Origin: Acidimicrobiales bacterium
GTDB taxonomy: Bacteria; Actinomycetota; Acidimicrobiia; Acidimicrobiales; Aldehydirespiratoraceae
Direction: 5' to 3'
NCBI GenBank assembly: GCA_965116665.1
Contig: OZ220709.1
Coordinates: forward strand, 1,340,669 to 1,404,668
DNA: 64,000 nucleotides
Below the pieces are notes generated by a model. The model was not told the origin of the DNA, ran no database searches, and saw only the letters and a list, made by a program, of their open reading frames with translations. Shown one piece after another: positions 4,597-38,653 of the stretch; positions within the stretch are counted from its first letter, which is position 1; every line of letters begins with the position of its first letter. Both the position numbers and the translations under genes were made by a program.

Positions 4597-4633
4597 GGGA
4601 TTCGCGATACCGCAGGGTAGCCTTGTGGTCCTG

Positions 4634-5860: not shown

Positions 5861-5935
5861 GCCCCGCCGCCCGGAGCAGGTCGCGTCGCGTGAGCGCGAT
5901 CCGGTTCTAGACTGGTCGGCGACCTAGCGGTCAAG

Positions 5936-6022: not shown

Positions 6023-6150
6023 GGCGTCGGCCCGGCCGGCGCAACCAAGTGTCCTTCGGGCACCCGACGTCACTGGCCTCCGAAGTGTCCGGTCCCCACC
6101 AGGGCCACCCTCGACGCGGGGCGGCCGGAGCGGATCACAAGGAGCGACGG

Positions 6151-20796: not shown

Positions 20797-20896
20797 CTCG
20801 CCGTGGCGGCGCCACACCCGCTCGGGAGCAAGTCTGCGGTACACCCGGGCCTGTGGGTCCCTTTCATCCGCAGCGCCTCGTATAGCTTGACCGGCC

Positions 20897-23662
20897 GTGA
20901 TGCAGTACCGACCCAAGCTGATTGAGGTGGCGCTGCCGCTGGCGGCGATCAATGCCGAGGCGGCGCGGGAGAAGTCACTGCGACACGGGCATCCCTCGAC
21001 CCTGCATCTCTGGTGGGCTCGCCGACCGCTGGCAGCAGCACGGGCGGTGATTTGGGCGTCGCTTGTGGACGACCCCTCCGGCGACCCGTCGTTGTCTTCG
21101 GAGGAGCAGAAGGCTGAACGGGACCGGCTATTCGGGATCCTTGAGCGGCTGGTCAAGTGGGAGAACTCTAACGACCCCAACGTGTTGGCCGAGGCCCGCA
21201 TTGAAATCGACCGCTGCTTCCCCAACGGGGCTCCCTCCATCCTGGATCCCTTCGCCGGAGGAGGGGCTATCCCATTGGAGGCGCAGCGACTCGGACTTGA
21301 GGCGGTGTCCGGGGATCTGAACCCGGTAGCGGTGCTCATCAACAAGGCGATGATCGAGATCCCGCCCCGCTTCGCTGGGATACCGCCTGTGCATCCTGAC
21401 ACAAACGAGCGCACCACTTGGCAGCGAGCCCAAGGACTAGCCGCTGATGTCGAGATCTACGGAAAGTGGATGCGTAGCCAAGCCATACGCCGCATCGGAC
21501 ACCTCTACCCTGACGCCACCGGCCCCGACGGCGAGAAACTCACACCCATTGCCTGGATCTGGGCCCGCACCGTCGAGTCACCCGACCCGAGTTGGTCTGG
21601 CCACGTTCCGCTGGTGGGGTCGTGGACACTCGTAAGGAAACCCGGCAAGCCCCAAGTCTGGATCGAGCCGATTATCGACCACCAAGCCCAGACGATCAGC
21701 TACGAGATCCGCGAAGGCGGCGAACCGTCATATGCAGAGTCATGCAGCGGAGGCAACGGAACCTGCTTGGCAACAGGTGCCGCTATCCCGACCTCATATA
21801 TCAAGACCGAGAGCCGTGCCGGGCGAACACGTCATGATCTGATCGCTGTCGTTGCTGAGGGGAATGGTATCCGTCACTACTGCTCGCCAAGGCCGGCCGA
21901 CTCGAGGGCAGCAGCCGAGGCACAACCCCGATGGAGACCGGAAGCGTCGCTACCAGACAAGGGTCTCGGGTTCCGTGTACAAGCCTATGGCCTCGGCGAA
22001 TGGTGGAAGCTGTTCACGGCGAGACAACTCACCGTGCTAACGACGTTCTCGGATCTTCTCGACGAAGTTGCGGACAAGGTGATTGCAGATGCACTAGCGA
22101 GCGGCATGGCTGGCGATGAGAAGCGGCTCCGAGATGGCGGAAATGGCGCCGCGGCGTATGCCGACGCGGTCGTCACCTATCTTGCTCTCGTAGTCGATCG
22201 TCTGGCGGACCGGAACTCGACTCTCTGCTCCTGGGATGTGTCACGGCAACACGCTCGGAATGTATTCGCTCGTCAGACAATATCGATGACCTGGGACTTC
22301 ACCGAAAACAACCCGCTCGGCGCGTCGTCGGGAAGTTGGCTGAATTACTTATCAGGACTCGTGCGCGCAATCGAGCGGCTACCAGCCTCGCGGGCCGGCA
22401 CAGTTGTGCAGCGCGATGCTCGAGCGCACGTGGCAGAGTCTGTCGGCGCTGTCATCTCCACAGACCCTCCGTACTACGACAACGTTGGATACGCCGACAT
22501 CTCCGACTTCTTCTATGTTTGGATGCGTGAGAACCTCCTGAAGACGTGGCCCGATGAACTCTCGACGCTATTAACACCGAAGGCGGACGAACTGATTGCC
22601 GACCCGGGTCGTCACGGAGGATCGGTCGGTGCCAAGAGACACTTCGAGTCGGGGATGGCCGAGTTCATGGAGACACTCGCAACGAGCGTGTCTCACGAGA
22701 TTCCGGCAACGGTCTACTACGCCTACAAGGCCACCGAGACGAAAGACGGTGAGATTCGTTCCACCGGTTGGGACACGTTCCTGCAAGCCGTTGTCGACGC
22801 AGGATTGCAAGTCAACGCCACCTGGCCCCTACGCACGGAATTAGCCAATCGCCCCCGCGGTATCGGTTCCAATGCGCTCGCTTCGTCCATCGTCCTCGCC
22901 TGTCGCCCCCGCTCAGAATCCGCAGCACCAGCCACGCGCGGCGAGTTCATCGCAGCTCTAAGGCAGGAGCTTCCCGAGGCGGTTCGGGTGTTGCAGTCGG
23001 GCGACATCCGTCCGGTGGACATGGCGCAATCCACGATTGGGCCCGGCATCAAGGTGTTCTCCCGCTATGGGCAGGTCGTGGAGGCTGACGGCTCACCCAT
23101 GCGAGTCTCAGCCGCTCTGGGGATCATCAACGACGTGCTCGGTGAGGTGCTCGACGGTACCGAGGCCGATCTCGACGCCGACACCCGCTTCGCGCTGACA
23201 TGGTTCGCAGAGCACGGTTACAACGCCGGTCCCTCAGGCGACGCCGACAGCGTGGCACGAGCCAAGAACACCTCGTTGGCTGGCATCGAGGCGTCCGGCG
23301 TCGGGGAGGCCCGAGCGGGGGAGTTCCGGCTGTATGAGCGCACTGAACTGGACCCCGACTGGTTACCGGCCGAGGACAGTCGGCGGACGGTGTGGGAGGC
23401 CACCCAGTACATGGCGGCCGCTCTGGAGCGTTCGGAGTCAGAGGCGGCTGATCTGCTGTACGCCCTCGGTGGTGATGGCGACCGGGCCCGCCAGCTCGCC
23501 TACTTGCTGTATCAGACAGCGAATGATCGGGGCTGGGCGTCCGAGGCGGGTGCCTATGACGCTCTCATCGCCGCTTGGCCGAGTTTGCGCGTCGGCGCCG
23601 CCCGTGTCGCCGCCACGGTCGCGGCCGAGGCCGTCGGCCCCGTCCAACAAGTACTGCTATGA
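20897..23662 (+). CDS. DUF1156-type DNA amino-methyltransferase
   Basis: ORF 20897..23662. N-terminal KLIEVALPLAAINAEAAREKSLRHGHPSTLHLWWARRP, motif I ILDPFAGGGAIPLEAQRLG, motif IV ISTDPPYYDNVGYADISDFFYVW. Confidence 0.9.
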   Translation: MMQYRPKLIEVALPLAAINAEAAREKSLRHGHPSTLHLWWARRPLAAARAVIWASLVDDPSGDPSLSSEEQKAERDRLFGILERLVKWENSNDPNVLAEARIEIDRCFPNGAPSILDPFAGGGAIPLEAQRLGLEAVSGDLNPVAVLINKAMIEIPPRFAGIPPVHPDTNERTTWQRAQGLAADVEIYGKWMRSQAIRRIGHLYPDATGPDGEKLTPIAWIWARTVESPDPSWSGHVPLVGSWTLVRKPGKPQVWIEPIIDHQAQTISYEIREGGEPSYAESCSGGNGTCLATGAAIPTSYIKTESRAGRTRHDLIAVVAEGNGIRHYCSPRPADSRAAAEAQPRWRPEASLPDKGLGFRVQAYGLGEWWKLFTARQLTVLTTFSDLLDEVADKVIADALASGMAGDEKRLRDGGNGAAAYADAVVTYLALVVDRLADRNSTLCSWDVSRQHARNVFARQTISMTWDFTENNPLGASSGSWLNYLSGLVRAIERLPASRAGTVVQRDARAHVAESVGAVISTDPPYYDNVGYADISDFFYVWMRENLLKTWPDELSTLLTPKADELIADPGRHGGSVGAKRHFESGMAEFMETLATSVSHEIPATVYYAYKATETKDGEIRSTGWDTFLQAVVDAGLQVNATWPLRTELANRPRGIGSNALASSIVLACRPRSESAAPATRGEFIAALRQELPEAVRVLQSGDIRPVDMAQSTIGPGIKVFSRYGQVVEADGSPMRVSAALGIINDVLGEVLDGTEADLDADTRFALTWFAEHGYNAGPSGDADSVARAKNTSLAGIEASGVGEARAGEFRLYERTELDPDWLPAEDSRRTVWEATQYMAAALERSESEAADLLYALGGDGDRARQLAYLLYQTANDRGWASEAGAYDALIAAWPSLRVGAARVAATVAAEAVGPVQQVLL

Positions 23663-23789
23663 CCGAGCCAGTCCGTGCTGGCACACTGTGTAACGATGAC
23701 CTCGGAGACGACGTCATGAAGAACGGCTGCACCGTTGTGCCTGCCGTGCCCGCAGCGCATCGATGCCCAAGTGCTGGAGGTCCATCAAG

Positions 23790-26700
23790 ATGGTGATGGC
23801 CAACACCGAGCGGATCGCAAAGGCGCTCATCCTGCTGCGTGACGGGCTCAGCCCCAGGTGTGAAGCCGCTTGGCAGAGGCTCTATGGCGACAACTGGCTC
23901 CAGAGCGTCAACTCCAAGCTCCGCAAGCCCGACAGGAACCCCACCACTGACGATGTGGCGTTTCTGTGCAATGGCATCAAGGCCACCTGGGACGAGGTGT
24001 TCGGCCGCGAACATTCTCCCGCTGTGCGGTCACTGGTGTTCGAGATCTCCGCCATCCGCAATCGCTGGGCTCATCAAGACTCGAAGCTGTCAGTGGCCAG
24101 CGATGATGCATTGCGAGCCCTCGACTCGATGGAACGGTTGCTGGAGGCGTTTAGCAACAAGGACGAGCGAGGCCAAATCCGCAGCCTGCGCCGCGACCTC
24201 ATGCGCCAGATGTTCGATGAGGAATCTCGCAGCGAGCGTCGCCGAACTGCCGCGCAGGCCACCGAGGGCACCCCCCAGTCGGGGCTCAAGCCATGGCGCG
24301 AACTCATCACACCGCACCAGGACGTGGCCAGCGGCAACTTCGTGCAGGCCGAGTATGCGGCTGATCTGGATCTCGTAGCCAACGGCGGCGCCGAGGACGA
24401 GTACCAGGACCCGTATGCGTTCTTCGCGCGCACCTACATCACCCAGGGCCTCCGCGATCTGCTCTCGGGAGCGGCCAAGCGGCTGGCAGGCAAGGGCGGG
24501 GACCCGGTGATCGAACTGCAGACCAATTTCGGTGGCGGCAAGACCCACTCGTTGATAGCGCTGTACCACCTGGCTTCGGGTGTCGACATCAACAAGCTGC
24601 CGGGGTTGGCCGATGTGCTAGCCGAAGAGAAGATCACCTTGCCCTCAAAGATCAACCGGGCGGTACTGGTGGGCCAGAAGATCTCGCCAGCGACACCGGA
24701 GACGGTCGCAGACGGTGTCGTGTTGCACACCTTGTGGGGTCGTCTCGCCTACCAGCTCGGCGGAGAAGAGGGCTACGCCATGGTGGAGGCCGACGACGTT
24801 GCGGGCACTAGCCCCGGCGCGGCTCTCACGAAGCTGTTCGACCGGTTCGGGCCGGCGGTGGTGCTCATCGACGAATGGGTCGCCTACGCCCGCCAGCTGC
24901 GCGATAGCCCTGCCAACGGTGACGGCGCCGGAGAGCGACTTGCCGGCGGGGACTTCGACACCCAGTTCACGTTCGCCCAGGCACTCACCGAGGCCGCCGC
25001 CGCGGTACCCAACGTGGTGGTGCTGGTATCGATCCCCGCCTCGGAGGTCGAGGTGGGCGGCCCGCGGGGCCGTACCGCGCTGGAGAAGCTCAAGAACGTC
25101 GTGGCTCGCACAGCCGCGCAGTGGCAGCCAGCGTCTCCTGACGAGTCCTTCGAGATCGTACGCCGGAGACTTTTTGACCCGCTGTCAGCGGAGAAGGCCA
25201 GAGCACGAGACAGCGTGATTTACGCGTTCAGCGGCATGTACCGAGACCAGCACGGCGAGTTCCCGCCCGGAGTGGCCGAGGGCGATTACCGCCGCCGTAT
25301 GCAGCTGTGCTACCCGATCCACCCCGAGTTGTTCGACCGGCTCTTTGACGACTGGTCCGCTCTCGACAAGTTCCAACGCACCCGCGGCGTTCTGCGGCTG
25401 ATGGCGTTGGCGATCTCCGAGATGTGGCAGCGCAACGACCAGTCACTGCTAATCATGCCGGGCAACCTGCCGATGGACTTCGGGCTGCTGGTCAGCGAGA
25501 TGAAGAAGTACCTCGAGGACGGCTGGGACCCAGTCATCAAGTCCGACGTCGACGGAGCCAACTCACTGCCGTTGCGCATCGACAGCGAAGTCAGCCACCT
25601 CGGACGGCTGTCCGCGGCCCGTCGAGCAGCCCGCACGGTGTACATGGGGTCCGCGCCGCGTCCAGACGGCAAGCAGGGAGTGGACCTCAAGTCGGTAGTG
25701 CTGGGCTGCGCACAGCCCGGTGAGTCTCCTCAGCAGTTCGCGGATGCTCTCAGACGCCTCTCAAACAAGGCCACCCACCTCTATGTCGCTGGCGCCCAGT
25801 ACTGGTATTCGCTGACCCCAAACGTGACCCGCATCGCCGAGGACCGGGCCCGTTCCAACTTCGACGCCCGCGACGCCGACGACGAGGCACGCTCCCGTAT
25901 CGCAGCCCAACGAGACAGGGGCTCCTTTGCGGCGGTACAGGTGTTCGCCGCGGGACCCGGGGATGTGCCCGACAACGACGACGGTGTGCGCCTTGTGATT
26001 CTCGAGCCGAACGCCACCCACTCCCTCAACGACGCGAACTCGCCCGCGGTGGCTCTCGCTGACAGGATCCTGACGCAGCGTGACGCCGGACCGAGACTGA
26101 ACCGCAACCTGGTGGTGTTCGTGGCCGCGGCCGCCAACCGCCTCGACGAACTACGCGACGCGGCCCGGCGCTACCGGGCGTGGGAATCGGTTGTCGGCGA
26201 CGAATCGCTGAACCTCACTGCCCACCAGCAACGCCAAGCCGAATCTCAGATGGCCGAGACGTCCAAGCAGGTCGACAGCCTCATCGCAGAGACGTTCACC
26301 TTGGTGCTCGCACCGTCGCAGAAGCCCGGCACCTCCGAGGTGGAATGGCAGACCATCCGGGCCAACTCAGCAGGTGACATCGCCGCACGAGTCAGCCGGA
26401 AACTCGCAACCGAGGAGCAACTCATCAACACCTACAGCGGGAGGCGGATCCGCATGGACCTCGACCGCCGCGAATTGTGGTCGGACCGCGGCGACATTGC
26501 CGTGCATGAGCTATGGGAGACCTACGCCCGGTTCCTTCACATGCCCCGCCTCGCCAGCCGTGAGACTCTGAATCATGCCATCGCCGCCAGAGCCACAGAC
26601 CTCACATGGCAACAAGAGACCTTCGCCTACGCGGAGGGCCACGACGGCGAACAGTGGCTGGGCCTGCGCACCGACACCGCCGTCGCCCCCGCCCCCAGCG

Positions 26701-27056
26701 GCCTGCTCGTACATCCAGACAAGGTCCCAGCACCCGCTCCGCAGCCCCAGCCACCGCCCGTCGCGCCCGCAGGTGGCACCCATACACCACCGGGCCCGCC
26801 CCGCGGCGACCCCGAACCACCCACAGCCCCGGTCTTGCCCAGAGAGTTCTACGCCCAGTTCCACCTCGACGTCATCCGCTGCATCAAACAACTAGACGCA
26901 ATCATCGAGAACGTCAGCAACAAACTCGGCGACTCCGACATCGACCTAGTGCTCGAACTCCGCGCCAAGAACCGGCAGGGCTTCAACGAGTCCACACAAC
27001 GAACCGTCTCAGAGAACGCCCGCAACCTGGAAGCCCAATCTTCCGAATTTGAATAG
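23790..27056 (+). CDS. DUF499-type P-loop ATPase with N-terminal Swt1-like HEPN domain
   Basis: ATG 23790 with GGAGG 9 nt upstream (ORF track start 23763). RxxxxH motif AIRNRWAH at 24057-24074. P-loop QTNFGGGKTHSLIALYHL. Large helical C-terminal region. Confidence 0.85.
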   Translation: MVMANTERIAKALILLRDGLSPRCEAAWQRLYGDNWLQSVNSKLRKPDRNPTTDDVAFLCNGIKATWDEVFGREHSPAVRSLVFEISAIRNRWAHQDSKLSVASDDALRALDSMERLLEAFSNKDERGQIRSLRRDLMRQMFDEESRSERRRTAAQATEGTPQSGLKPWRELITPHQDVASGNFVQAEYAADLDLVANGGAEDEYQDPYAFFARTYITQGLRDLLSGAAKRLAGKGGDPVIELQTNFGGGKTHSLIALYHLASGVDINKLPGLADVLAEEKITLPSKINRAVLVGQKISPATPETVADGVVLHTLWGRLAYQLGGEEGYAMVEADDVAGTSPGAALTKLFDRFGPAVVLIDEWVAYARQLRDSPANGDGAGERLAGGDFDTQFTFAQALTEAAAAVPNVVVLVSIPASEVEVGGPRGRTALEKLKNVVARTAAQWQPASPDESFEIVRRRLFDPLSAEKARARDSVIYAFSGMYRDQHGEFPPGVAEGDYRRRMQLCYPIHPELFDRLFDDWSALDKFQRTRGVLRLMALAISEMWQRNDQSLLIMPGNLPMDFGLLVSEMKKYLEDGWDPVIKSDVDGANSLPLRIDSEVSHLGRLSAARRAARTVYMGSAPRPDGKQGVDLKSVVLGCAQPGESPQQFADALRRLSNKATHLYVAGAQYWYSLTPNVTRIAEDRARSNFDARDADDEARSRIAAQRDRGSFAAVQVFAAGPGDVPDNDDGVRLVILEPNATHSLNDANSPAVALADRILTQRDAGPRLNRNLVVFVAAAANRLDELRDAARRYRAWESVVGDESLNLTAHQQRQAESQMAETSKQVDSLIAETFTLVLAPSQKPGTSEVEWQTIRANSAGDIAARVSRKLATEEQLINTYSGRRIRMDLDRRELWSDRGDIAVHELWETYARFLHMPRLASRETLNHAIAARATDLTWQQETFAYAEGHDGEQWLGLRTDTAVAPAPSGLLVHPDKVPAPAPQPQPPPVAPAGGTHTPPGPPRGDPEPPTAPVLPREFYAQFHLDVIRCIKQLDAIIENVSNKLGDSDIDLVLELRAKNRQGFNESTQRTVSENARNLEAQSSEFE

Positions 27057-27934: not shown

Positions 27935-29407
27935 ATGGACGACAGGACAAGCATCAGCGACTTGGCTCGCGCCTTCTTGACATCGGCGCTGGGGGTGCTT
28001 CGAAGAGAGAGCGTGGTCCCGACCCCGAGGTTCCATCCGTTCCTGCAGGTCGGACGCGACTACTTCGGGGACAGCCTCATGGGCCTAAGCGAGTTCGTCG
28101 CGCTTGAGGGCGCGATCGCCGAGCGCCATCCACGGTTCAGCGACGCCACACCACACATGGAGCGCGACTTCGCAAATGGATACATCTTCAGCTTCTTGGA
28201 GGCGTTCATCGCTGAGGTCTCGTTGAACGGAGAGGACTGGTCGCCTGACGCTTCGAGCTTCGACAGGTGTCTGGCCAGCCTCGTTTCAGCCATAGAGGCC
28301 GCGAGCCGGGAGGTGGCGTGTTGTCGCGAGGTCTCTAACCTGACCATAGCCAGCGGCGAGCCCCTCGAATTCTCTGACGTCACCGTCATCCCGCTAACGG
28401 TGCCTCCCCACGATCACAGCCGAGAAGCCGTCCGCACCATCGCTCGAGTGATTCCCCACGCACAGAGTGCCCATGGCCGAGCCTCGCCCGACGGATGGGA
28501 CCCGCCACACTCGATAGTCATTGCCCGCGATCACAGCCCCAAGCCCTTCGAATCCGCCAAGACCCTTTCCAGCCGGATCGAGCGCTTTCTGTTGATTGGT
28601 CGACTCCTACATGCTGGAACGTGCGACTCCCTTTATGAAGTCCAAGGCGAAACAGCGCTGGTTCGCCGGTATACGCCAACGCTCATGCACTTCCGAGGCT
28701 CTGCAGGCTCGCTCTGGGCACCCAGCATGATTCGTCGCACCACCCGACTTGAACCCCAAGACGTCGAGCGATTCGACGGCCTCAGCGAGGCGATCGCAAC
28801 CGCTGAGGGCGACCCTCAGGGCATGTTGCTGAGTTCGTTCGGCATGGCCAAGCATCGGTTTCAGATGTCCTATCACGAGCACGCCTGGTATGAGCAGCTC
28901 ATTGACCTCGCCATCGCATTCGAAGCAGCGCTGTCCGGCGCCCACAAGACCGACGTCCTGCTGCGCCTCAAGACGCGCGCCTCGGCGCTGTTGGCAACCG
29001 AGAATGACCCAGTTGATTCGATATTCAAAGATATTGGCATCCTGTACGACCTCCGGTCGAAGCTGATCCACGGCAACGCGTTCTCAGAGAAGGGTTTGGC
29101 GAAGTCCGCAAAGTCGATCACCACCGTGCCCTACGACAGCCCAAGCGGAGAGGCCGTCGACCACGCCGTCGACCGGCTACGTGACTTGGTACGCCGCGCC
29201 CTGCTAGCGCGGATATGCCTGGCGGCGTGCGAGCCGCCATTGTGGAACCTCGACGAAGACAAGAGTGTTGACGCCCAGCTAGCTGACGCATCGACGAGAG
29301 ACAAGTGGTGTTCCACATGGCGCGCCGTTCTGGAGCAATTCGATGCGCACGGTTCCGTCGACCGGCCACGAACCGCCGCGAGTTTCGTCAGCCCAGAGGA
29401 TCGATAA
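27935..29407 (+). CDS. HEPN-domain protein (ApeA/Abi-like candidate RNase)
   Basis: ORF 27935..29407. Canonical RxxxxH motif in YDLRSKLIHGNAF near the C-terminal third. Helical composition; stand-alone gene. Confidence 0.6.
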   Translation: MDDRTSISDLARAFLTSALGVLRRESVVPTPRFHPFLQVGRDYFGDSLMGLSEFVALEGAIAERHPRFSDATPHMERDFANGYIFSFLEAFIAEVSLNGEDWSPDASSFDRCLASLVSAIEAASREVACCREVSNLTIASGEPLEFSDVTVIPLTVPPHDHSREAVRTIARVIPHAQSAHGRASPDGWDPPHSIVIARDHSPKPFESAKTLSSRIERFLLIGRLLHAGTCDSLYEVQGETALVRRYTPTLMHFRGSAGSLWAPSMIRRTTRLEPQDVERFDGLSEAIATAEGDPQGMLLSSFGMAKHRFQMSYHEHAWYEQLIDLAIAFEAALSGAHKTDVLLRLKTRASALLATENDPVDSIFKDIGILYDLRSKLIHGNAFSEKGLAKSAKSITTVPYDSPSGEAVDHAVDRLRDLVRRALLARICLAACEPPLWNLDEDKSVDAQLADASTRDKWCSTWRAVLEQFDAHGSVDRPRTAASFVSPEDR

Positions 29408-29451: not shown

Positions 29452-30171
29452 TCATGTGGACCACGAGAAAGGGATCGCGAGTTGGCGATTCCACCACTCG
29501 GCGACTTCTGGGCGCCAGTCGGGATTGATCCGCCGGGCGACCACAACGATGGCCGGCACTTCGGCACCGGCTTCTCTCAGCGCGAATGCGGCCGACTGCG
29601 ATCTTGCGCCGGTGGTGAATACGTCGTCGAGCAGCAGCACGCGGCGGTCCGCGACCCCAGTCGTCGGCTCGAAGGCGCGCCGGTCAGATTTGCGGTGCGC
29701 GACCTCGCCGGGCCCTCGGCGCAGCAGCTGCTTGAGCGGCCCGATACTCCCAGCGTCATGGTCCGACAACGCCCGCGCGAGGGGATGGGGCGGCTCGCGA
29801 TCAGTGGAGGGCACCACGCACACGGTGTCCCAAGATCCGAGTCGGTGCGCGAGCGATTCGTTGTGTTGGATGAAGAACCGTTCGATGAGCGCGGCCACCT
29901 CCCGGCTAAGTCGTCGGCGCGTCGATGCGTCGTCGCTGTCTTTGTAGTTCCGCAGTCGGTCTCGCATTGTCGATGGCTTCGCGTACAGCGATATCGGCAC
30001 GACCGGGCGGAGGGACCCGAGAATCTGGTGGCAGACGGTGCAGCTGTCGCAGAGACCTTCTGTCTGATCGCGATGTCCCCGGCAGATGGGGCACACGTCG
30101 GGGCCCTGCATCGGTACGGTGACGCAGTCGGGCGCGAGCGAATCGCCGAGAGCGGCGAGCGCCTGGTTCAT
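29452..30171 (-). CDS. ComFC-type phosphoribosyltransferase with N-terminal 4-Cys zinc finger
   Basis: ATG 30171, 1 nt after the upstream stop. Motifs: CPICRGH...CDSCTVC, and PRPP loop RRVLLLDDVFTTGARSQSAAFAL. Confidence 0.8.
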   Translation of the reverse strand: MNQALAALGDSLAPDCVTVPMQGPDVCPICRGHRDQTEGLCDSCTVCHQILGSLRPVVPISLYAKPSTMRDRLRNYKDSDDASTRRRLSREVAALIERFFIQHNESLAHRLGSWDTVCVVPSTDREPPHPLARALSDHDAGSIGPLKQLLRRGPGEVAHRKSDRRAFEPTTGVADRRVLLLDDVFTTGARSQSAAFALREAGAEVPAIVVVARRINPDWRPEVAEWWNRQLAIPFSWST

Positions 30172-30172
30172 C

Positions 30173-31045
30173 TCAGTGCTGGAAGGCCAGTTCCCTGATC
30201 TCCGTTGCTGAGCACACCAGATGGACGTTGTCGTCAGTGGCGGCGAGGCTGCGCGCCCAGGGCCTGTTGCCCAGCACGGGTGCCCACAGCAGAACCGGCC
30301 GGTTGAACTCGAGGCTGTAGTCCATCTCGATGCGGGTGCCGCTGAGTTCCTCGGCCTCGATGACCACACTGGCACTGGACAGTCCGGCGATCACAGCGTT
30401 GCGCACTGGGAAGCTGGTCTTGGACGGACGCAGACCCGGCGGGAACTGCGACACGACGGCGCCGCTGCGGACGATCCGCTCGATAAGCTGCCGGTTCTCG
30501 GGCGGGAAGACCACATCGATGCCCGTGCCGACAACGGCGGTTGTGCGTCCGCTCGCGTCGAGGGCTCCCCGGTGCGCTGCGGTGTCGACACCGCGGGCCA
30601 AACCCGAAACGATCGTTGTACCGGCGTCAGCAAGGGTGGCTGCGACCTCATGTGCCGCATCGGTTGCCTGCTCGCTTGCGTCGCGGCTTCCGACCATTGC
30701 GACAGAGCCCGCTCCGTTGCTGTCCAGCGAGCCCCGTACGAACAGGACCGCAGGGGCATGAGCTGTCTCGAGCAGCAAGCTCGGATAGCCAGGGGAATCA
30801 GCCAAGAAGATGTGGAAGTTGGTGAATTGTTCACCTAGTCGCGCGATGGCGGTTCGCCACTTCTCGCCGTTGTCCTCGTTGGGCGTGTCGAGGGAAAGCC
30901 GTCGCAGGTCGTTCGCGGTCAACCAGCCATCGCAGCGATCGGCTTGCTCGGCGAGGGCGAGCAGGCGTGCGACTTGGCCGGGGGCCCACAACACGTCGAG
31001 AGGCGAACGGAAGCTGTCTCCGGTAGCGGTCGTGGTATTCGTCAT
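30173..31045 (-). CDS. DprA/Smf-like Rossmann (SLOG-superfamily) protein
   Basis: ATG 31045 with GGGAGG RBS inside the upstream gene tail. Motifs: VAMVGSRDAS, VSGLARGVDTAAHRGAL, VVGTGIDVVFPPEN, FPVRNAVIAGLS, VVIEAEELSGT. Confidence 0.85.
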   Translation of the reverse strand: MTNTTTATGDSFRSPLDVLWAPGQVARLLALAEQADRCDGWLTANDLRRLSLDTPNEDNGEKWRTAIARLGEQFTNFHIFLADSPGYPSLLLETAHAPAVLFVRGSLDSNGAGSVAMVGSRDASEQATDAAHEVAATLADAGTTIVSGLARGVDTAAHRGALDASGRTTAVVGTGIDVVFPPENRQLIERIVRSGAVVSQFPPGLRPSKTSFPVRNAVIAGLSSASVVIEAEELSGTRIEMDYSLEFNRPVLLWAPVLGNRPWARSLAATDDNVHLVCSATEIRELAFQH

Positions 31046-31049
31046 GCTC

Positions 31050-32465
31050 TCAGCCTCCCTCACGAATATACAACGCTTGTTCTGACAGGCGAGCGGCAGC
31101 TCTGGCGCACTCCTCGGGGTTGCCGTCGCAGAGTGAGTTGAAGTCCGCCCGGTCAACGGGCAGCCCTCCAAGCCGATAGTCATCCAGACTCTCGTTGATG
31201 CGAGTCCACTCCTGCAGCGCCGAGCCACCGAACTTGCCTATCGGGACAACTCCGAGCCCGTCCGCTCGCGCTCGCTTGATCTCGTCGGCAGTACCGGGTC
31301 CACCACCGATCGCTAGAACTGCGCGCGCCCCGCGGAACGCCGCATCGCGCATTTCGTGTTGGTTAGACCCTTGGAAGACAATGCTGCCGAATCGCTGGCT
31401 CGGCTCATCGAGGGGCTGATCCTTGCTCCGCCTCAGCAACACGAACCGCTCGGCGTGGAGCCCGCTAGGTTCCTGCAGCCTTCTGAGGAGCGCGTAGCCG
31501 ACCCGGGCACCGAACGCGCCCCCAGCGCTCAAGGCCACTGAGGTCTCTTCGAAAGCAGCCCCCAGATGATTCGCGAAGTCTGACATGGGCTCAGTCAGAT
31601 CGATTGACGGGTAGCTGTCTCCGGTATCTGGCTTCTCCTCGGGTGGTGATCCGGCAATGAACAGTCGACATGGCCGACAGCGTGCGATCAGTTGCTTGAG
31701 CAGCACTTCGAGTTCGGAGTACTCGTCAATCGTCGCGACGTTGATCCCGATCGCCTCCAGATCCTTGAGGTGAAGGTTGAAGAGAGTCTTGTCCTGTTCT
31801 GCGGGTGGTTTCCGTATGACAGCAAAGTGCTCGCGATGAATGTCGTACCGTGCTCGCCGGATCGCCTGAAAGACCTGGTCGAAGTTGGGATCCTCAAAGC
31901 TGAAGCCGAGGAACAGGAAGCTCTTGGTGAGGAGACTCGCTTGAAGCAATGCCCAGAAGCGCTTGTGTGAATCGGGGTAACGGATGTACTGGTCTCTTGC
32001 AGCGATCAGTTCTTGATCCTGGTCCGTGAGTGAGCCATGCATCTTGTAGACGCGACATCCCGTGCTGTCGTCCCTTCGTGCAAGGTCGTCGTCCCTAACG
32101 AATGCGCGCGCGCCGTCCGCCATGGCGCGCTCGATCAAGTCGTCGTAGTTAGTCGTCCAGATCTCCGCGAGCGGAAGCGCTGCCAGGAGTTCGTGACGCC
32201 GAGTGGGTTGTGGCGGCGGTTCCAATTGGAGTTCCTGCCGGATGAGGCGCTGAAGGTCTTCTTCGGAGTGCTGACTGATGTAGTACTGCGCCAGCAATGG
32301 GAGATCGTTGAGGTCGGGCAACTGCATCGCGTCCCGCACCTGCTCCAAGAGGCCCGACCAGTCCGGGTAGCCCGCATCCTTCGACAAGCCGGCGCCCACG
32401 AGAACAGTGGCCTCCCGGTTGTCGACGTACTGGCCGAATGACGCAATCAGTCTCGAGGGTTCCAT
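31050..32465 (-). CDS. thsA: ThsA-type SIR2-SLOG protein (Thoeris effector homologue)
   Basis: ORF 31050..32465. The SIR2 half carries VLVGAGLSKDAGYPDWSGLL, WTTNYDDLIERA, VYKMHGSL and FLFLGFSFEDPNFD. The C-terminal half carries LFIAGSP, LSAGGAFGARVG, AIGGGPGT and VVPIGKFGGSA (SLOG-like). It appears colinear with Bacillus ThsA as I recall that sequence. Confidence 0.85.
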   Translation of the reverse strand: MEPSRLIASFGQYVDNREATVLVGAGLSKDAGYPDWSGLLEQVRDAMQLPDLNDLPLLAQYYISQHSEEDLQRLIRQELQLEPPPQPTRRHELLAALPLAEIWTTNYDDLIERAMADGARAFVRDDDLARRDDSTGCRVYKMHGSLTDQDQELIAARDQYIRYPDSHKRFWALLQASLLTKSFLFLGFSFEDPNFDQVFQAIRRARYDIHREHFAVIRKPPAEQDKTLFNLHLKDLEAIGINVATIDEYSELEVLLKQLIARCRPCRLFIAGSPPEEKPDTGDSYPSIDLTEPMSDFANHLGAAFEETSVALSAGGAFGARVGYALLRRLQEPSGLHAERFVLLRRSKDQPLDEPSQRFGSIVFQGSNQHEMRDAAFRGARAVLAIGGGPGTADEIKRARADGLGVVPIGKFGGSALQEWTRINESLDDYRLGGLPVDRADFNSLCDGNPEECARAAARLSEQALYIREGG

Positions 32466-32830
32466 AGCGTCTTCATGCTATATACTTATATTTGGTGTCT
32501 GACGAGTAGCAGGGCTCCGGCGGAGATCGGCCGGCGCGAGCAGGCCCGCCGTGCGTAGACAGTGCTCCACAGAGATCCTCCTGCTCTCGAGTGTCTGTCA
32601 GCGCCAATAATGGGGGATCCTCCGCGTCCAGCCGCGGACCCTCCACCCTGACCTCGATCTCAAACGCGAAGCGCCGTATGGCTACTGCAGACCGTTTGAC
32701 GGCGATCACTGAAACTCCCCACTTCTGATCACTGAAATTCCCCACCCTGGGGCATCCACCCGACATGGGTGGGGCTCCTCTGTGCTGGACGTTCGCCAGA
32801 GCGTTAGCGACCAGAGGAGCCCCGGCTCAG

Positions 32831-34129
32831 ATGATCACACATGGAGAAGACGTGGAGCTTCACGCACTGAGGGCACAGGGTTGGTCGATCTCGGCGATCG
32901 CCCGGCATTTGGGCTTGGACCGCAAGACGGTGCGCGCCCACCTCGCCGGCGAGCGCGAGGCGGGGGTGCGCCGCAACAGTGCGGTGGATCCCTTCGACGC
33001 GGTGGCGGACTATGTGTGTCAGCGGCTGGTCGAGGACCCCCATGTGCGGGCCACGGTGCTCTTCGGTGAGGCGCAACGGTTGGGCTATCGGGCGTCGTAT
33101 CCGACGTTCGTGCGCCGGATCCGCCACGGGGGTCTGCGACCTGAGTGTCAGGCGTGCACACCGGGCCGGGTTCACACAGACATCGAGCACCCGCCCGGTG
33201 AGGAGATCCAGTGGGACTGGCTGGAGCTGCGAGACACCCCGTGGGGCACAGCGGCGTTCGTTCTGGTGGGGGTGCTGTCGCACTCGGGGCGGCTGCGGTG
33301 CTGGTTCTCTGAGTCGATGGATCAGCCCCATCTGGTGGCGGGCATCCACCAGGTGCTGGAACGCCTCGGCGGCACCGCCCGGCGCTGGAGAACCGACCGC
33401 ATGGCCGCGGTGGTGGCGCCGGGAACGGACCGGGTTCAGGCGTCGTTCGCGGCGGTGGCCAAGCACTATGGGGCCGCGGTCGATGTGTGCCCGCCTCGGC
33501 GCCCCCGCCGCAAGGGCTCAGTCGAGAAGGGCATCGACTATCTCACCCAGTCGTGGTGGCGCACCGCTGCGGTCGCATCACCCGAGGCAGCCCAGGTTTC
33601 AGCTGACCGCTGGTGCACCGAGGTCGCGGATGCTCGAGTGCGCCGCGTCGGCGGCGACGTCCTCACCGTCGCGGAGGCCGCAGCCGGCGAGCCGCTGGGG
33701 GCTCTTCCCGGCGCCGCGTTCCCGGTGACGCTCACCCTTGAGCGGGTCGTGGCAGCCAACGCGCTGGTGGCGCTGTGGGGCAACCGCTACTCGGTCCCGC
33801 CCGAGCTGGCCGGCGCGAACGTGGTGGTCACCCACCGAGTCGGCACCGATGTCATCGAGATCCACGCCCCCGGCGGGCGCACCGTCGCCGAACACCGCCT
33901 GGCGCCACCGGGAGCGCACCGCACCATCCGCTGCGCCGAGCACACCCAGGCCCTGCGGGCCGCGGTGCTCGCAGCCTTCGACACCGCAGGCCCCTGCCGG
34001 CGCAAGGCCAACCGGCCCCCCAGCCCCCAAGCCACAGCCATCGCGGCCCGCCTGCACCCACACATCAGCACCGATCCTGTCATCGACTTGGACGTCTACC
34101 GGCGTCTCACCCAACCGGAGGACTCGTGA
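32831..34129 (+). CDS. istA: IS21 transposase IstA
   Basis: ATG 32831 in ORF 32765..34129. HTH region LRAQGWSISAIARHLGLDRKTV, DDE-region blocks (IQWDW, WRTDRMAAV). Stop overlaps the istB start. Confidence 0.9.
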   Translation: MITHGEDVELHALRAQGWSISAIARHLGLDRKTVRAHLAGEREAGVRRNSAVDPFDAVADYVCQRLVEDPHVRATVLFGEAQRLGYRASYPTFVRRIRHGGLRPECQACTPGRVHTDIEHPPGEEIQWDWLELRDTPWGTAAFVLVGVLSHSGRLRCWFSESMDQPHLVAGIHQVLERLGGTARRWRTDRMAAVVAPGTDRVQASFAAVAKHYGAAVDVCPPRRPRRKGSVEKGIDYLTQSWWRTAAVASPEAAQVSADRWCTEVADARVRRVGGDVLTVAEAAAGEPLGALPGAAFPVTLTLERVVAANALVALWGNRYSVPPELAGANVVVTHRVGTDVIEIHAPGGRTVAEHRLAPPGAHRTIRCAEHTQALRAAVLAAFDTAGPCRRKANRPPSPQATAIAARLHPHISTDPVIDLDVYRRLTQPEDS

Positions 34130-34929
34130 ACCCCAAAGACAGCCTCTACCAGCAGCTGAGATCGCATCTGGCCTACCTCAAGCTGACCGCAGCCGCCGAG
34201 GCCCTGCCCGCCGCCCTCGACGCCGCCACCCGCAACAAACACACCCACACCGAGTTCCTCGAACAGCTCCTCGCAGTCGAGGTCGACGCCACCGAGGCCC
34301 GCCGCCTCGCCGGGCGGATGCGCTTCGCGAACTTCCCAGCCCCCTGGAGACTCACCGACTTCGACTTCGACGCCCAACCCTCAATCGACTCAGCCCTCAT
34401 TCGTGACCTCGCCACCACCAGATACACCGCCGACGCCACCAACATCTTGTTCATCGGGCCGCCCGGTGTGGGCAAGACCATGCTCGCCGTCGCATTGGGA
34501 CATGAAGCCGTCGAAACCGGCCTACGCGTCTACTACACCACCGCCGCCGACCTAGCCGCCCGATGCCGCAAAGCCGCCATCGAGGGACGCTGGGCCACCA
34601 CCATGCGATTCTTCGCCGGGCCCGCCGTGTTGATCATCGACGAACTCGGCTACCTCCCCATGCCCACAGAAGACGCCAACGCCCTGTTCCAGGTCATCAG
34701 CCAGCGCTACCTCAAGAGCTCCATCATCTTGACCACCAACCGAGGCGCCAACGCCTGGGGAGACATCTTCGGCGACACCACCATCGCCGCCGCCATGCTC
34801 GACCGGCTCCTGCACCGCTGCGCCGTCATCAACATCACCGGCGACAGCTACCGCCTACGCGCCCACCAAGCCCGCAACCGTCAACACACAACTACAATCC
34901 AACCACCCCAGGGTGGGGAATTCCGCTGA
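34126..34929 (+). CDS. istB: IS21 helper ATPase IstB
   Basis: GTG 34126 overlaps the istA stop (GTGA). Motifs: LKLTAAAEAL, Walker A FIGPPGVGKT, Walker B LIIDELGY, and TTNR. Confidence 0.9.
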   Translation: MNPKDSLYQQLRSHLAYLKLTAAAEALPAALDAATRNKHTHTEFLEQLLAVEVDATEARRLAGRMRFANFPAPWRLTDFDFDAQPSIDSALIRDLATTRYTADATNILFIGPPGVGKTMLAVALGHEAVETGLRVYYTTAADLAARCRKAAIEGRWATTMRFFAGPAVLIIDELGYLPMPTEDANALFQVISQRYLKSSIILTTNRGANAWGDIFGDTTIAAAMLDRLLHRCAVINITGDSYRLRAHQARNRQHTTTIQPPQGGEFR

Positions 34930-35098
34930 TCAACTCTGGGGAATTTCGCTGATCGGCGTCACGTTCTCGGGGAGGCATCGATTGGCTAGTGCGGCGGCCT
35001 TGGCCCCGCTGCAGGGCGTGTTGGGCGAATCGCCCTGACTTCCGGAGGTTCTGGCCCGCCGAGGCCCGTCGTTGGCTCCGGCGGCTGGGAGGGCGCGT

Positions 35099-36427
35099 CT
35101 ATGTGGGTGGTGTGGTGATGTCGGCGCCGAGGTGTGTGAACTTGGCCAAGACGTTGTCGTAGCCACGTTCGAGGTGGTGGACGCCTGTGAGCAGGCTGTC
35201 GCCTGTGGCTGTGACGGCGGCGACGGCGAGCCCGAACCCGGCGCGGATGTCTTCCATGGCTACTTCGGCGCCGTGGATCTTGGTGGGCCCCGCGACGAGA
35301 GCGGAGTGGCGGTGGCGGCCGGATCGGAACCGGCAGTCGCCGCTTCCGAGGCAGTCGTTGAAGGTCTGAACCGTGGCGCCCATCAATGCGAGTTGGCCGG
35401 TATAGCCGAGGCGGTCCTCGAAGACGGTTTCATGCACTGCGGACACGCCGTCGGCCTGGGTCAGCGCAGCAACCAGCGGGGGCTGCCAGTCGGTCGCGAA
35501 GCCCGGCCAAGGAGCGGTCGAGACCGCCACGGGGTCAAGTCCGTTGGGGGCTTCGGCTTCGATCGCGCCGTCGATGTCGATGCGGACTGTGGCTCCAAGG
35601 CGCCGCAGCAAAGCGATCGCGGGTGCCATCCGGGCCGGGTCACAGCCTGTCACTTTCACCTTGCCTTTGGTGGCGATCCCCGCGGTCAGATACGAGAAGG
35701 CTTCGACTCTGTCTCCGGCTATGCGCTGGTTGGCGGGTTGCAGAGATGGTACGCCGTCGATCACGTAGCACCGGTGGTCGCTTCTGTCGATGATCGCGCC
35801 CATGCGCGACAAGAATTCGACAAGCTCGTCGACTTCGGGCTCCACGGCTGCGTTGTGCAGGATCGTGCGCCCCTGAGCGAGCACCGCGGCCAACAGGACG
35901 CTTTCGGTCGCTCCCACACTGGGATACGGCAATGTGATGTCGGTACCCCGCAGGGTCCCGGCCGCGGTGATGCCGTCGGGGTCGACGCGGACCTCGGCAC
36001 CCATCGCAGCCAACGCTTCGCGGTGGAAGTCCACCGGACGCGCTCCGATGCCGTCGCCGCCCACCAGCGGAACCCGGGCCTGCCCGAAGCGGTGCAACAG
36101 CACCGGCAGACACAGAATCGGCATGCGGTTCAAACCCGAATAGGCCACCCCGACCTGCTCACAGCACACAGTCGAGCCGTCGATGACAGCACGGCCGGAC
36201 TCCACCGCCACACCGGCACCGACAGCGTCAAGCATCGCCGCGGTGATCCGCACATCGGCGATGCCGGGCCCATTGTGAAGCTCAGACGCGCCGTCGGCGA
36301 GACACGCAGCGATCATCAGCTTCGTCGCAGTGTTCTTTGCGCCCGCCACCGCGACCGTCCCCTCCAACACCGCGCCCGAGCGCACATACCACACCCGATC
36401 ACCCGCAGCGGCCAGCTCGTTCATCAT
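35099..36427 (-). CDS. murA: UDP-N-acetylglucosamine 1-carboxyvinyltransferase with Asp at the catalytic Cys position
   Basis: ATG 36427 within ORF 35099..36559. Motifs: VAGAKNTATKLM, RVPLVGGDGIGARPVDFH (Asp codon gac at 36055-36053 where E. coli has Cys115), YPSVGATE, PWPGFATDWQ. Confidence 0.85.
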   Translation of the reverse strand: MMNELAAAGDRVWYVRSGAVLEGTVAVAGAKNTATKLMIAACLADGASELHNGPGIADVRITAAMLDAVGAGVAVESGRAVIDGSTVCCEQVGVAYSGLNRMPILCLPVLLHRFGQARVPLVGGDGIGARPVDFHREALAAMGAEVRVDPDGITAAGTLRGTDITLPYPSVGATESVLLAAVLAQGRTILHNAAVEPEVDELVEFLSRMGAIIDRSDHRCYVIDGVPSLQPANQRIAGDRVEAFSYLTAGIATKGKVKVTGCDPARMAPAIALLRRLGATVRIDIDGAIEAEAPNGLDPVAVSTAPWPGFATDWQPPLVAALTQADGVSAVHETVFEDRLGYTGQLALMGATVQTFNDCLGSGDCRFRSGRHRHSALVAGPTKIHGAEVAMEDIRAGFGLAVAAVTATGDSLLTGVHHLERGYDNVLAKFTHLGADITTPPT

Positions 36428-36734
36428 CGCCGCCTCCAGACGCGCAACCGGCCCCAGGGTGCCGCTGTGTCCTGTCGCGGGTGCAGGGTGGCTCACACAC
36501 TCAAGGTTATTGCTGTGCCCGCTGCCAACAGCTCGCCACGGCAAGGTGCCGAGTGCCACCGGCCGCCCGGCGGCCTGAAGTCGAGGTCCTTGTCGACGCT
36601 CCCACTACCGGTGCACTCGTTCCAGGCGGGGCCATGCGCCGCGACAGCCCACCGCATTCACCCGCAACTACAGCCCGCCCACAAGGATCCCCCGCGCACG
36701 CGGGGCCTCGCACTCTCTCGGGCACAATTGGTTC

Positions 36735-37559
36735 GTGACGCCTGAGGACTTCTTCATTGACAGCGGTCCGGGGCGGCGCGCCCTCAACCGGGGTCTCCTA
36801 GAGCTTGTTCGCTCCGGTGCGTACGACAAGAGGTCCGATGTCGAGGTCGGTGCCGCGTTGCTGCGACTCGCCCACGATGAGTTGGAGGCCTACGGCACAG
36901 ACGGCGCCCAACGGGTGAGCGAAGACGACATCCGTCACATCCTGCAGACCTGCCGGCGCCTCATGAAGCGCATAGGAGTCGATCTTGAACTGCCGTTTAG
37001 CGACTTCCGGACGTTCCGGTCGTATTGGCTGGCAAACGATGCCTACAACAGTTGGCAGGCGCGCCGAGACATCCTGCACGGCCTGTTCGAGCCGGCGCAT
37101 CGCGAGTTGGTACGGCTAGAAGACGACGAGATCGAGTCAACCCTGGCGCGGCCTGTTACGAGCCATCCCGGTACGGGCTGGTCCCGGGTGGATGCCGAGA
37201 TCAACGAGCTCCGGCGTCATTTCAAGGCGGCTCGCAGCCCGCAGGACTACCGGAACATAGGCAACGACTGTGTCGCCGTGCTTGAGAAGCTGAGCGCAGC
37301 CGTGTTCGATCCTGGCCGCCACCTCAATGAGGGCGAGGACGAACCTCCAGTCGCGAAGACGAAGGAGCGACTCGGCCGATTCGTGGAACGCTCCGCGCCG
37401 GGTCCAGCGAACAAGGAGATCAGAAAGGTCGCCCGGGCTGTGATCGAGCTCGCACAGGCCGTGAAGCACAGCGACACGCCCTCTCGAAGAGATGCAGGCA
37501 TCGCTGCTGACTCGGTGATCCAGTTGGCGAACATCTTTCGCCGCCTGGCCGAACAGTAG
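36735..37559 (+). CDS. Hypothetical helical protein
   Basis: ORF 36735..37559 (GTG start). Protein-like, lower-GC composition. No recognised motif. Confidence 0.5.
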   Translation: MTPEDFFIDSGPGRRALNRGLLELVRSGAYDKRSDVEVGAALLRLAHDELEAYGTDGAQRVSEDDIRHILQTCRRLMKRIGVDLELPFSDFRTFRSYWLANDAYNSWQARRDILHGLFEPAHRELVRLEDDEIESTLARPVTSHPGTGWSRVDAEINELRRHFKAARSPQDYRNIGNDCVAVLEKLSAAVFDPGRHLNEGEDEPPVAKTKERLGRFVERSAPGPANKEIRKVARAVIELAQAVKHSDTPSRRDAGIAADSVIQLANIFRRLAEQ

Positions 37560-37780
37560 AGCCACAGTGATTCGGTGTGGCACTCCAGGCCGCCCCGCTC
37601 GAGCGACGACGGACGTCTCAAGCCCGAGCAGTGGTCGCGGCGCCGTACTGTGGGGACTGGCCCGCCGTTCGTGGAAACGATCCGGCGTCGACAGGAGTCC
37701 CGGGTCTCGCCTTGCAGCGGCGATCGACCTGGACAATGGGCCACGACCACTGGTGTTTCCCTCACGAGAGCGGTGACGTG

Positions 37781-38653
37781 ATGGGAGCATCCTTCCCGAA
37801 GAGCCAGCACATTGTTCCCAGGACGCTGCTCAATCGCTTCTGCGACAACGACGGATGGCTGTGGGTGGGGATAAGAGATCGCTCAGATGTGTTCCGGCAG
37901 AGACCCGAGCGCGTGTTCACCCAGAACCACATCTACACCCGCTACGCCTACGACGGCGCTCCGCCCAGCGCCGAACACGAAGAGACGCTCGCCATCCTGG
38001 AGAGCGACGCCGCTCCCGTGATCAGTCGTATCGTCGGCTGTGCCCGACGCATCGAGCCCCCGGAGTTGTCGCCGACAGAACTCGTGGCGCTCCAGAGGTT
38101 CGTCTTGTCGCTGGCCTGCAGGACACCGGAGTCCCGGCAGCGCGTGTCGCGCCGGCTCAGCGACGGCGAGTTCTATGACATCGTCCGCCGACGTGCCGAG
38201 CAGCAGGGCTTCGAGGGCCTATCCGACACACACGGCTTCTACGCCGACGCAAAGATCCGGGAGTTGGCCAAACGCATACGGCACAACGCCGACGCCTCGT
38301 TCGCGGCAGGAGCTGACCCGCGCCTAGCCGCCGAAGAAGGCAAGTTCATTACGGAGACCGGCGTCCGGTTCGCGGTGATCCAGGCGCCGTCCAAGAGTCT
38401 CGTGATCGGAAGCCACGGCATCACCAACTGCGATCCCCGCCTCGTCGGCGGCTACCTGGCGGGAGCGGTGTTGCCCATAGCGCACGATGTCGTTGCCCAC
38501 ATCACACCATGGCCCTGCACGGCGGGGCTTCTGGTGCTCAAGGACACTGCAGAGTCCTCCAAGCTGATCGACACGGTCAACGCGGCCACAGCCGCACAGA
38601 GCTCGATGATCGCTGGCCGCTCCCAGACCCTAATCCGGTCACTACTGGACTGA
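37781..38653 (+). CDS. DUF4238-family protein
   Basis: ATG 37781 (37736 alternative) in ORF 37577..38653. N-terminal KSQHIVPRTLLNRFCD matches the HYVPQFYLRxF-type DUF4238 opening. Confidence 0.65.
   Translation: MGASFPKSQHIVPRTLLNRFCDNDGWLWVGIRDRSDVFRQRPERVFTQNHIYTRYAYDGAPPSAEHEETLAILESDAAPVISRIVGCARRIEPPELSPTELVALQRFVLSLACRTPESRQRVSRRLSDGEFYDIVRRRAEQQGFEGLSDTHGFYADAKIRELAKRIRHNADASFAAGADPRLAAEEGKFITETGVRFAVIQAPSKSLVIGSHGITNCDPRLVGGYLAGAVLPIAHDVVAHITPWPCTAGLLVLKDTAESSKLIDTVNAATAAQSSMIAGRSQTLIRSLLD

Follow-up and report, generated by a model that had tools for sequence, protein, structure and literature searches.

A ThsA-type SIR2-SLOG gene joined to DprA-like and phosphoribosyltransferase genes in a putative actinobacterial defence cassette

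We analysed a 64,000-nucleotide stretch of contig OZ220709.1 (assembly GCA_965116665.1, positions 1,340,669 to 1,404,668) from an Acidimicrobiales bacterium, referred to below as the window, and within it a cassette of three adjacent genes. These encode a ThsA-like protein of 471 amino acids (aa) with an N-terminal SIR2 and a C-terminal SLOG domain, a DprA-family Rossmann/SLOG protein of 290 aa, and a phosphoribosyltransferase (PRTase) of 239 aa that consists of a zinc ribbon and a type I phosphoribosyltransferase (PRT) domain. The trio probably forms one functional, defence-related unit in which an NADase is controlled independently of a TIR protein. Judged from its genes and their products, the cassette is Thoeris-like at the effector end, Shosta-like at the sensor end, and a member of neither system, because no TIR gene was detected in it, its PRTase does not have the ShosT architecture, and it comprises three genes rather than two. 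As an explanation of the whole we favour, with about even confidence, a mobile unit of the abortive-infection type in which the TIR protein of Thoeris has been replaced by the DprA-like protein and the PRTase. The functional coupling of the three proteins is inferred from comparative genomics only.

The thsA-like gene (31050-32465), the dprA-like gene (30173-31045) and the PRTase gene (29452-30171) all lie on the minus strand. The thsA-like gene ends in GAG GGA GGC TGA, with its stop codon at 31052-31050, and a GGGAGG ribosome-binding site for the dprA-like gene (31054-31059, minus strand, by sequence reading) is contained within these last codons; a 4-nt spacer then precedes the dprA-like ATG at 31045. 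At the second junction the dprA-like stop codon (30175-30173) and the PRTase ATG at 30171 are separated by a single nucleotide. In the closest homologue, locus L001 from a Candidatus Aldehydirespirator metagenome-assembled genome (MAG), the three proteins are 82-85% identical to those of the window, the spacers are likewise 4 nt and 1 nt long, and the alignment of all three proteins starts at residue 1; we therefore favoured these start codons over longer open reading frames (ORFs) beginning with GTG. Upstream of the thsA-like gene, a short conserved and AT-rich 5' leader (TATAAGTATATAGCAT; 32466-32518, minus strand) reaches to the 5' limit of cassette homology and may act as a promoter. A preliminary description of this DNA had given the same three-gene layout, ORF positions and junctions, all of which were borne out by direct reading of the sequence. 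The motifs that it listed for the ThsA-like protein (GAGLS, WTTNYD, YKMHG, FLFLGFSFEDPN, LFIAGS, GGGPGTADE and VVPIGKFGGSA), as well as the four Cys and the VLLLDDVFTTG of the 239-aa protein, were all found in the translations.

Species-representative genomes were scanned with an alignment of ThsA-like homologues as query, and the best 80 loci were kept. The top 21 loci were all from Actinomycetota, and 15 of these carried a DprA-like and a PRTase gene immediately downstream on the same strand; the others were one locus with a convergent pair (Curtobacterium, L016), one with a truncated thsA-like gene, and four of a Kribbella type without the pair. Of these 21 actinobacterial loci of the scan, 16 therefore had the thsA-like gene together with the pair. 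Seven further trio loci came from Blastococcus and a metagenome (both via PRTase homologues), a metagenome locus (L085), two Mycolicibacterium plasmids, Mycolicibacterium tusciae and Nocardia. Besides the window, the trio was thus present in 23 loci, 22 of which read ThsA-like, DprA-like, PRTase on one strand, the pair of L016 being convergent. ThsA identity across trio loci ranged from 82% down to ~30%, and the hosts included Acidimicrobiia, Mycobacteriales, Micromonospora, Nocardioides and Amycolatopsis. Two copies were located on mobilizable Mycolicibacterium plasmids, where they adjoined integrases and toxin-antitoxin (TA) genes and where the RefSeq labels of the trio genes are 'SIR2 family protein', 'DprA' and 'amidophosphoribosyltransferase'. 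The survey of neighbourhoods called for in the preliminary description thus had a clear outcome: the thsA-like gene and the pair recur together, in 16 of 21 scan loci and seven more, and a TIR gene was not detected with them. A scan of metagenome contigs based on the PRTase was discarded as an unbiased census, as the diverse alignment contained no usable block, while a narrower alignment gave the generic DDV[FY]TTGA only; 78 of its 80 loci were unrelated PRTases, and only L085 was useful.

The limits of the cassette were sharp. In blastn comparisons of the window with L001/L002, homology covered the cassette only, from 32499/32518 to 29452/29431. No conserved fourth gene was found, as no flanking ORF family was common to more than three of the 21 loci. 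Where the dprA/PRTase junction could be resolved, in 16 loci, the two genes overlapped by 4 bp in nine. Two DprA-domain database proteins (P0078 and P0221) matched the ThsA-like or PRTase query with high identity over 21-37% of the query; these probably stem from gene calls that ran on from one cassette gene into the next, where junctions are tight or overlapping. Between the window and L001, the ratio of nonsynonymous to synonymous substitution rates (dN/dS) was 0.19 for the ThsA-like protein, 0.14 for the DprA-like protein and 0.15 for the PRTase, with similar dS values of 0.53-0.67, and the distance matrices of the three proteins were correlated (r 0.72-0.80, Mantel p<=5e-4). On these comparative grounds we regard the trio as one unit and not as a chance adjacency, and we take the cassette to be horizontally mobile and common in Actinomycetota. 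Decay of the cassette was also visible in two Acidimicrobiales MAGs: in L002 (8906-10589) an insertion of ~1.7 kb with a 477-aa ORF interrupts the dprA-like gene, and in L003 (7001-7795) the thsA-like gene is truncated after ~265 codons and stands without the pair. Downstream of the trio in Nocardia sp. CA-135398 (L172, 7172-9410) we observed an AEP-like primase-family gene and a gene whose 817-aa product matches nSTAND_NTPase5 and, weakly, SIR2_2, an arrangement that resembles another defence-island neighbourhood.

The ThsA-like protein matched Pfam SIR2_2 (4e-31) and PADLOC ThsA (7e-72), and its AlphaFold2 (AF2) model had a predicted local distance difference test score (pLDDT) of 88 and a predicted template modelling score (pTM) of 0.86. 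The best PDB matches in Foldseek were SeThsA, BcThsA and EcThsA, all full length (E ~1e-25, ~495 aligned columns), and the family profile matched BcThsA (6lhx) at 5.8e-78 over residues 6-455. Because of these full-length structural matches and the profile match, we assign the C-terminal half to the SLOG domain; consistent with the fold proposed in the preliminary description, this half is modelled as SLOG and superposes together with the rest of the protein on the three ThsA structures. It is a divergent one, since the Pfam STALD match reached 17.7 bits, under its cut-off, and the PADLOC ThsA match spans aa 4-327 only and stops at residue 327. The SIR2 catalytic residues N106 and H143 (BcThsA N112/H152) were invariant in 108 of 108 aligned sequences, and the SIR2 half belongs to the ThsA/DSR2-type NADase family and is no deacetylase. 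SLOG residues of the window protein are G272, S273, R373 and GGPGTADE at 388-395. The cassette thus shares with type I Thoeris an effector that is homologous over its full length, with the same two-domain fold, catalytic Asn and His, and the G-S loop, Arg and Glu of SLOG, and by analogy it probably acts by NAD+ depletion. It differs in that PADLOC ThsA stops before, and STALD falls under threshold on, its SLOG half.

It also differs in its partners. All four defined Thoeris types include a TIR gene (10.64898/2026.01.22.701046), and in canonical loci 58 of 85 same-strand adjacent ORFs matched Pfam ThsB_TIR. In contrast, when six-frame ORFs of the window and of 18 trio loci were searched with 67 ThsB-like queries (phmmer), no TIR gene was found save for a marginal, distant match at E 0.004, whereas positive controls were recovered. 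In the window no TIR gene was detected with these queries, in agreement with the earlier reading that it holds no TIR-like ORF. The remaining 59 of the 80 scan loci belonged to other phyla, with ThsA identity <=33%, and none of the 59 had the pair. In a neighbour-joining tree an actinobacterial clade (47 sequences and three of the Kribbella type) was placed apart from 58 canonical ThsA sequences, including BcThsA. Thus, unlike in type I Thoeris, the cassette has no detected TIR gene and its effector falls in a separate actinobacterial clade. In the loci examined, no TIR gene was seen beside the ThsA-like genes of this clade, gene context having been verified for only some of the 47 clade sequences.

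We then compared the SLOG pockets by sequence alignment. In BcThsA, 3' cyclic ADP-ribose (3'cADPR) is contacted by G289, S290, L326, Q359, R371, K388, G399 and E403 (10.1101/2022.05.07.491051). The actinobacterial clade keeps the G-S loop (G272, S273) and the Glu (E395), and an equivalent of R373 is present in 36 of 47 sequences, whereas the equivalents of L326, F357, Q359 and K388, which are strongly conserved in canonical ThsA, are unconserved in the clade. Canonical ThsA carries K388 on a hairpin of ~10 residues, GNK....G..GVxxEF, that is absent from the clade; in its place the clade has a compact GGxGTxxE (GGPGTADE in the window), found in exact form in 20 of 47 clade members versus 0 of 58 canonical sequences, with GGxRTxxE and GGxGVxxE as variants. 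In LOG (Lonely Guy) enzymes, PGGxGTxxE is the motif to which AMP-type nucleotides bind by their 5'-phosphate, and its last Glu acts with an upstream Arg (PMC4979012). Many clade members have the nucleotide-phosphate loop of LOG phosphoribohydrolases in their SLOG domain, and the clade Arg stands ~22 residues upstream of it, a spacing like that of LOG Arg99/Glu122; in contrast to LOG, the SLOG domain of the cassette is fused to SIR2 and has no leading Pro in the motif. The clade pocket retains the core that binds ribose phosphate but not the adenine-stacking residues of 3'cADPR-binding ThsA. Without the K388 hairpin and the L326, F357 and Q359 equivalents, the pocket is more LOG-like than that of type I Thoeris. 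The clade pocket probably still binds a ribose-phosphate ligand, and this ligand is probably other than 3'cADPR. A ligand resembling a nucleoside 5'-monophosphate would be of the class that a PRTase produces.

The DprA Rossmann core proposed earlier for the 290-aa protein was supported by its match to Pfam DNA_processg_A (4.6e-57), which places it in that family, and it also matched PADLOC ShosA (3e-58). Its best PDB sequence matches were Streptococcus pneumoniae DprA (4e-34) and Escherichia coli ShosA (8e-19), while the dprA equivalog TIGR00732 gave 175.5 bits, just under the cut-off of 191.15. R121 and R215 align with the Arg that bind single-stranded DNA (ssDNA) in Helicobacter pylori DprA (R52/R143), which correspond to ShosA R139/R234, and both were invariant in 16 of 16 trio homologues. 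In ShosA, R139 and R234 are both essential for the antitoxin function (PMC12961424).

For the PRTase, sequence matches were weak: Pribosyltran scored 3.6e-4, under the curated cut-off, and comF (2e-6) and PADLOC ShosT (7.7e-5) matched the loop for phosphoribosyl pyrophosphate (PRPP) only, the ShosT model covering aa 171-217. Similarly, comF TIGR00201 reached 27.9 bits against a cut-off of 233.55 and GntX PRK11595 reached 19.9 against 304, and phmmer searches of PDB returned PRPP-loop matches only, so that the likeness to ComF emerges at the level of the fold alone. The AF2 model (pLDDT 96.8) had a PRT fold; its top Foldseek match was H. pylori ComF (7p0h; 238 columns, E 3.5e-6, with a TM score of only 0.45) and its second was ShosT, over the PRT domain only. 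The term 'ComF-type' applied in the preliminary description thus holds for the zinc-ribbon/PRT architecture and the fold, whereas the NCBIfam comF score lies far under its cut-off. The zinc ribbon is formed by C27, C30, C41 and C44, and the PRPP loop VLLLDDVFTTG contains D182 and D183, an acidic pair that is the counterpart of the PRPP-binding D331/D332 on which ShosT activity depends. The four Cys, a YK motif, VVPS and the DD-TTG PRPP loop were conserved in the PRTase family; D182 was kept in 14 of 16 and D183 in 15 of 16 trio homologues, and in the wider family both showed little or no variation.

A stand-alone antiphage pair of DprA and PRTase from phage-satellite hotspots, to which the preliminary description had referred, does exist and is Shosta/ShosTA (PMC9122126). 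Pairs of the ShosTA type are validated anti-phage TA systems (PMC9122126, PMC11961720, PMC12961424). The PRTase is the toxin in ShosTA, and PRPP binding is essential for the toxicity of ShosT (PMC11961720, PMC12961424), while ShosA requires ssDNA binding and interaction with RecA, does not bind the toxin, and is unstable (PMC11961720, PMC12961424). With Shosta/ShosTA and the related PsyrTA, the cassette shares a DprA-family protein with the ssDNA-binding Arg and a PRTase with an intact PRPP loop. However, E. coli ShosT has 424 aa with PPase-like and PRTase domains (PMC11961720), whereas the PRTase of the cassette, at 239 aa, combines a zinc ribbon with a PRT domain, and in place of two genes the cassette has a conserved SIR2-SLOG gene before the pair, as in the 23 other loci.

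Taken together, these features suggest how the favoured unit would work. The ThsA-type SIR2 NADase would be the effector, or one of the effectors, restrained by its own SLOG domain, and the DprA-family ssDNA-binding protein and the ComF-like zinc-ribbon PRTase would stand in for the TIR sensor and signal synthase of Thoeris. Like ShosA, the DprA-like protein would watch ssDNA of phage origin or the RecA-ssDNA state, and upon sensing would free or activate the PRTase, which would form an N-ribosyl-5'-phosphate compound with PRPP. The ThsA-like protein would bind this compound in its LOG-like SLOG pocket, and its SIR2 domain would be switched on and deplete NAD+. That the link between the proteins is a small molecule made by the PRTase and read by SLOG is a tentative proposal that we hold with less than even confidence. 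In its more specific form, the ComF-like PRTase would be an immune signal synthase that converts the ssDNA cue of the DprA-like protein into a PRPP-derived nucleotide second messenger for the LOG-like SLOG domain and the SIR2 NADase, and this we consider somewhat improbable.

Several observations weigh against this account. The proposed coupling of the three proteins comes from gene comparisons, and the Mantel correlation may come partly from shared host phylogeny. The TIR search was made by phmmer, without profiles, and a very divergent TIR could escape it. The exact GGxGTxxE is present in only 20 of 47 clade members, and the pocket comparison, being a sequence alignment, is uncertain in the middle of SLOG. 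Furthermore, the toxin of ShosTA is the PRTase itself (PMC11961720, PMC12961424). The parts of the cassette also occur separately: a DprA-like and PRTase pair without SIR2-SLOG is encoded by the temperate Gordonia phage Vasanti (gp30/gp29), another is found in L082 and P0205 in a conserved chromosomal context, more distant relatives of the PRTase are solitary, and the four Kribbella-type loci carry a ThsA-like gene without the pair. Since the pair occurs without a SIR2-SLOG gene, it can evidently work, or at least persist, without ThsA, and by its gene content it is a Shosta-like module in its own right.

In Vasanti (L170, MK359313, 2976-4663) the pair, whose PRTase also has a zinc ribbon, shows the same gene order and lies beside the integrase. 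With the integrase/immunity region on one side and the tail genes on the other, this is likely a prophage-encoded defence position. A 200-aa gene upstream of the L082 pair was considered as an alternative effector and rejected, as it had no similarity to ThsA and only a weak TetR_N match. In the Kribbella loci L013, L015 and L019 (~3985-8368) the orphan ThsA-like genes, which belong to the same clade, are each next to, and divergent from, an ORF of ~930-960 aa; the one in L013 has AAA_16 and LuxR matches and is STAND-like. A check of the Kribbella-type loci for replacement partners gave this AAA_16-LuxR gene upstream and unrelated genes downstream; the arrangement may reflect ordinary genus-level synteny or an alternative partner.

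The strongest rival is a Shosta-like TA pair, with the PRTase as toxin and the DprA-like protein as antitoxin, to which the ThsA-like NADase has been added as a second effector without any messenger made by the PRTase. The DprA-like protein, a dimer of the SLOG superfamily, could hold the ThsA-like protein inactive by direct SLOG-SLOG contact, and its titration by phage ssDNA or its degradation could then free both effectors; another possibility is that SLOG responds to a metabolic consequence of PRTase action, for example a changed PRPP or purine-nucleotide pool. This explanation has in its favour that the ShosT PRTase is a toxin which the unstable ShosA neutralises indirectly via ssDNA and RecA, that the pair occurs alone in a temperate phage and in chromosomes, that the ssDNA-binding Arg of the DprA-like protein are invariant, and that ThsA SLOG domains dimerise (10.1101/2022.05.07.491051) while DprA and ShosA act as dimers. 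However, the core of the SLOG pocket (G272, S273, E395) is invariant or nearly so down to ~30% identity, which argues that a small-molecule ligand is still bound. Moreover, the PRTase is ComF-like and lacks the PPase domain of ShosT, so its toxicity should not be assumed, and contact between the DprA-like and ThsA-like proteins is conjectural. We judge a TA pair with a second effector less likely than the favoured account, though it is the main rival.

A second rival holds that two independent systems travel together, an orphan or degenerate Thoeris effector beside a Shosta-like pair. Defence genes do cluster in islands, of which the window contains one, and each part occurs apart from the other. 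Yet the genes stay adjacent, in order and tightly spaced as identity falls from 82% to ~30%, in many genera and also on plasmids; the edges of the trio are exactly where homology ends; and the three genes are under similar purifying selection. An effector without its activator would be expected to decay, yet the catalytic and pocket residues are invariant, and no clade member was seen with a TIR gene in the loci examined. Independent adjacency is thus unlikely, with only a small probability in our estimate. Also unlikely, and with the slightest probability of all, is a role outside defence as a DNA-uptake or recombination module of DprA and ComFC-like proteins with a sirtuin-like regulator: the DprA-like sequence is closer to S. 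pneumoniae DprA than to ShosA, the best structural match of the PRTase is H. pylori ComF, and the cassette shares with the transformation proteins DprA and ComFC the DprA Rossmann core and the ComF-like architecture and fold, but both proteins score under the NCBIfam equivalog cut-offs (dprA 175.5 vs 191.15, comF 27.9 vs 233.55), the cassette is mobile, has a patchy distribution and neighbours defence, TA and integrase genes, not those of a competence locus, and the SIR2 half is of the ThsA/DSR2-type NADase family, not a deacetylase.

The trio was not described in the literature searched, though the SLOG survey of Burroughs et al. 2015 (NAR) may already mention a SIR2-SLOG/PRTase context. If the favoured reading of a unit with TIR-independent NADase control is correct, the ThsA NADase effector would be modular and drivable by a sensor other than TIR, ssDNA sensing by a DprA-like protein would be tied to NAD+ depletion, and a widespread and so far unannotated defence cassette would be added to those of actinobacteria, including mycobacterial plasmids. 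The SLOG pocket would serve as a built-in receptor for finding the product or acceptor of defence-associated PRTases. Should the PRTase indeed make a messenger, its immune signalling chemistry would depend on neither TIR nor CD-NTase nor cyclic oligoadenylate (cOA) synthases, and it would hint at what the PRTases of Shosta and PsyrTA and the PRTase effectors of retrons produce.

Around the cassette, at ~14000-38000 of the window, the GC content is ~0.61-0.65, compared to 0.68-0.72 on both sides, which is consistent with a horizontally acquired island. This island contains a complete Hma system (17191-27056, plus strand) of HmaA (SNF2 helicase and NOV_C), HmaB (DUF1156 methylase) and HmaC (DUF499 ATPase). 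At its N-terminus this HmaC carries an additional domain, HEPN_Swt1 (aa 20-130), that the PADLOC HmaC profile does not cover, as its match begins at aa 175. A DUF4238 gene (37577-38653, plus strand) was recognised by Pfam, without a PADLOC or NCBIfam match; protection against T7 by a single DUF4238 gene has been demonstrated (Rousset et al. 2022, PMC9122126). Between the cassette and murA (35099-36559), a bona fide murA within the island with TIGR01072 above cut-off, an IS21-family element (32697-34961, plus strand) is inserted 231 bp upstream of the thsA-like ATG. It carries istA (32765-34129) and istB (ending at 34929) with rve/Mu-transpos_C_2 and IstB_IS21 matches, and it is bounded by 56-nt imperfect terminal inverted repeats, each with a doubled ~19-nt subrepeat, and by a CGTT target duplication. 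The element is context and lies outside the system; with it removed, the gap between murA and the thsA-like gene is ~364 bp, close to the ~370 bp estimated before. Three plus-strand ORFs, at 16029-16994 (321 aa), 27935-29407 (490 aa) and 36735-37559 (274 aa), had no Pfam, PADLOC or NCBIfam match and are candidate island genes. The 490-aa ORF converges on the cassette, ending 44 bp from the PRTase stop codon.

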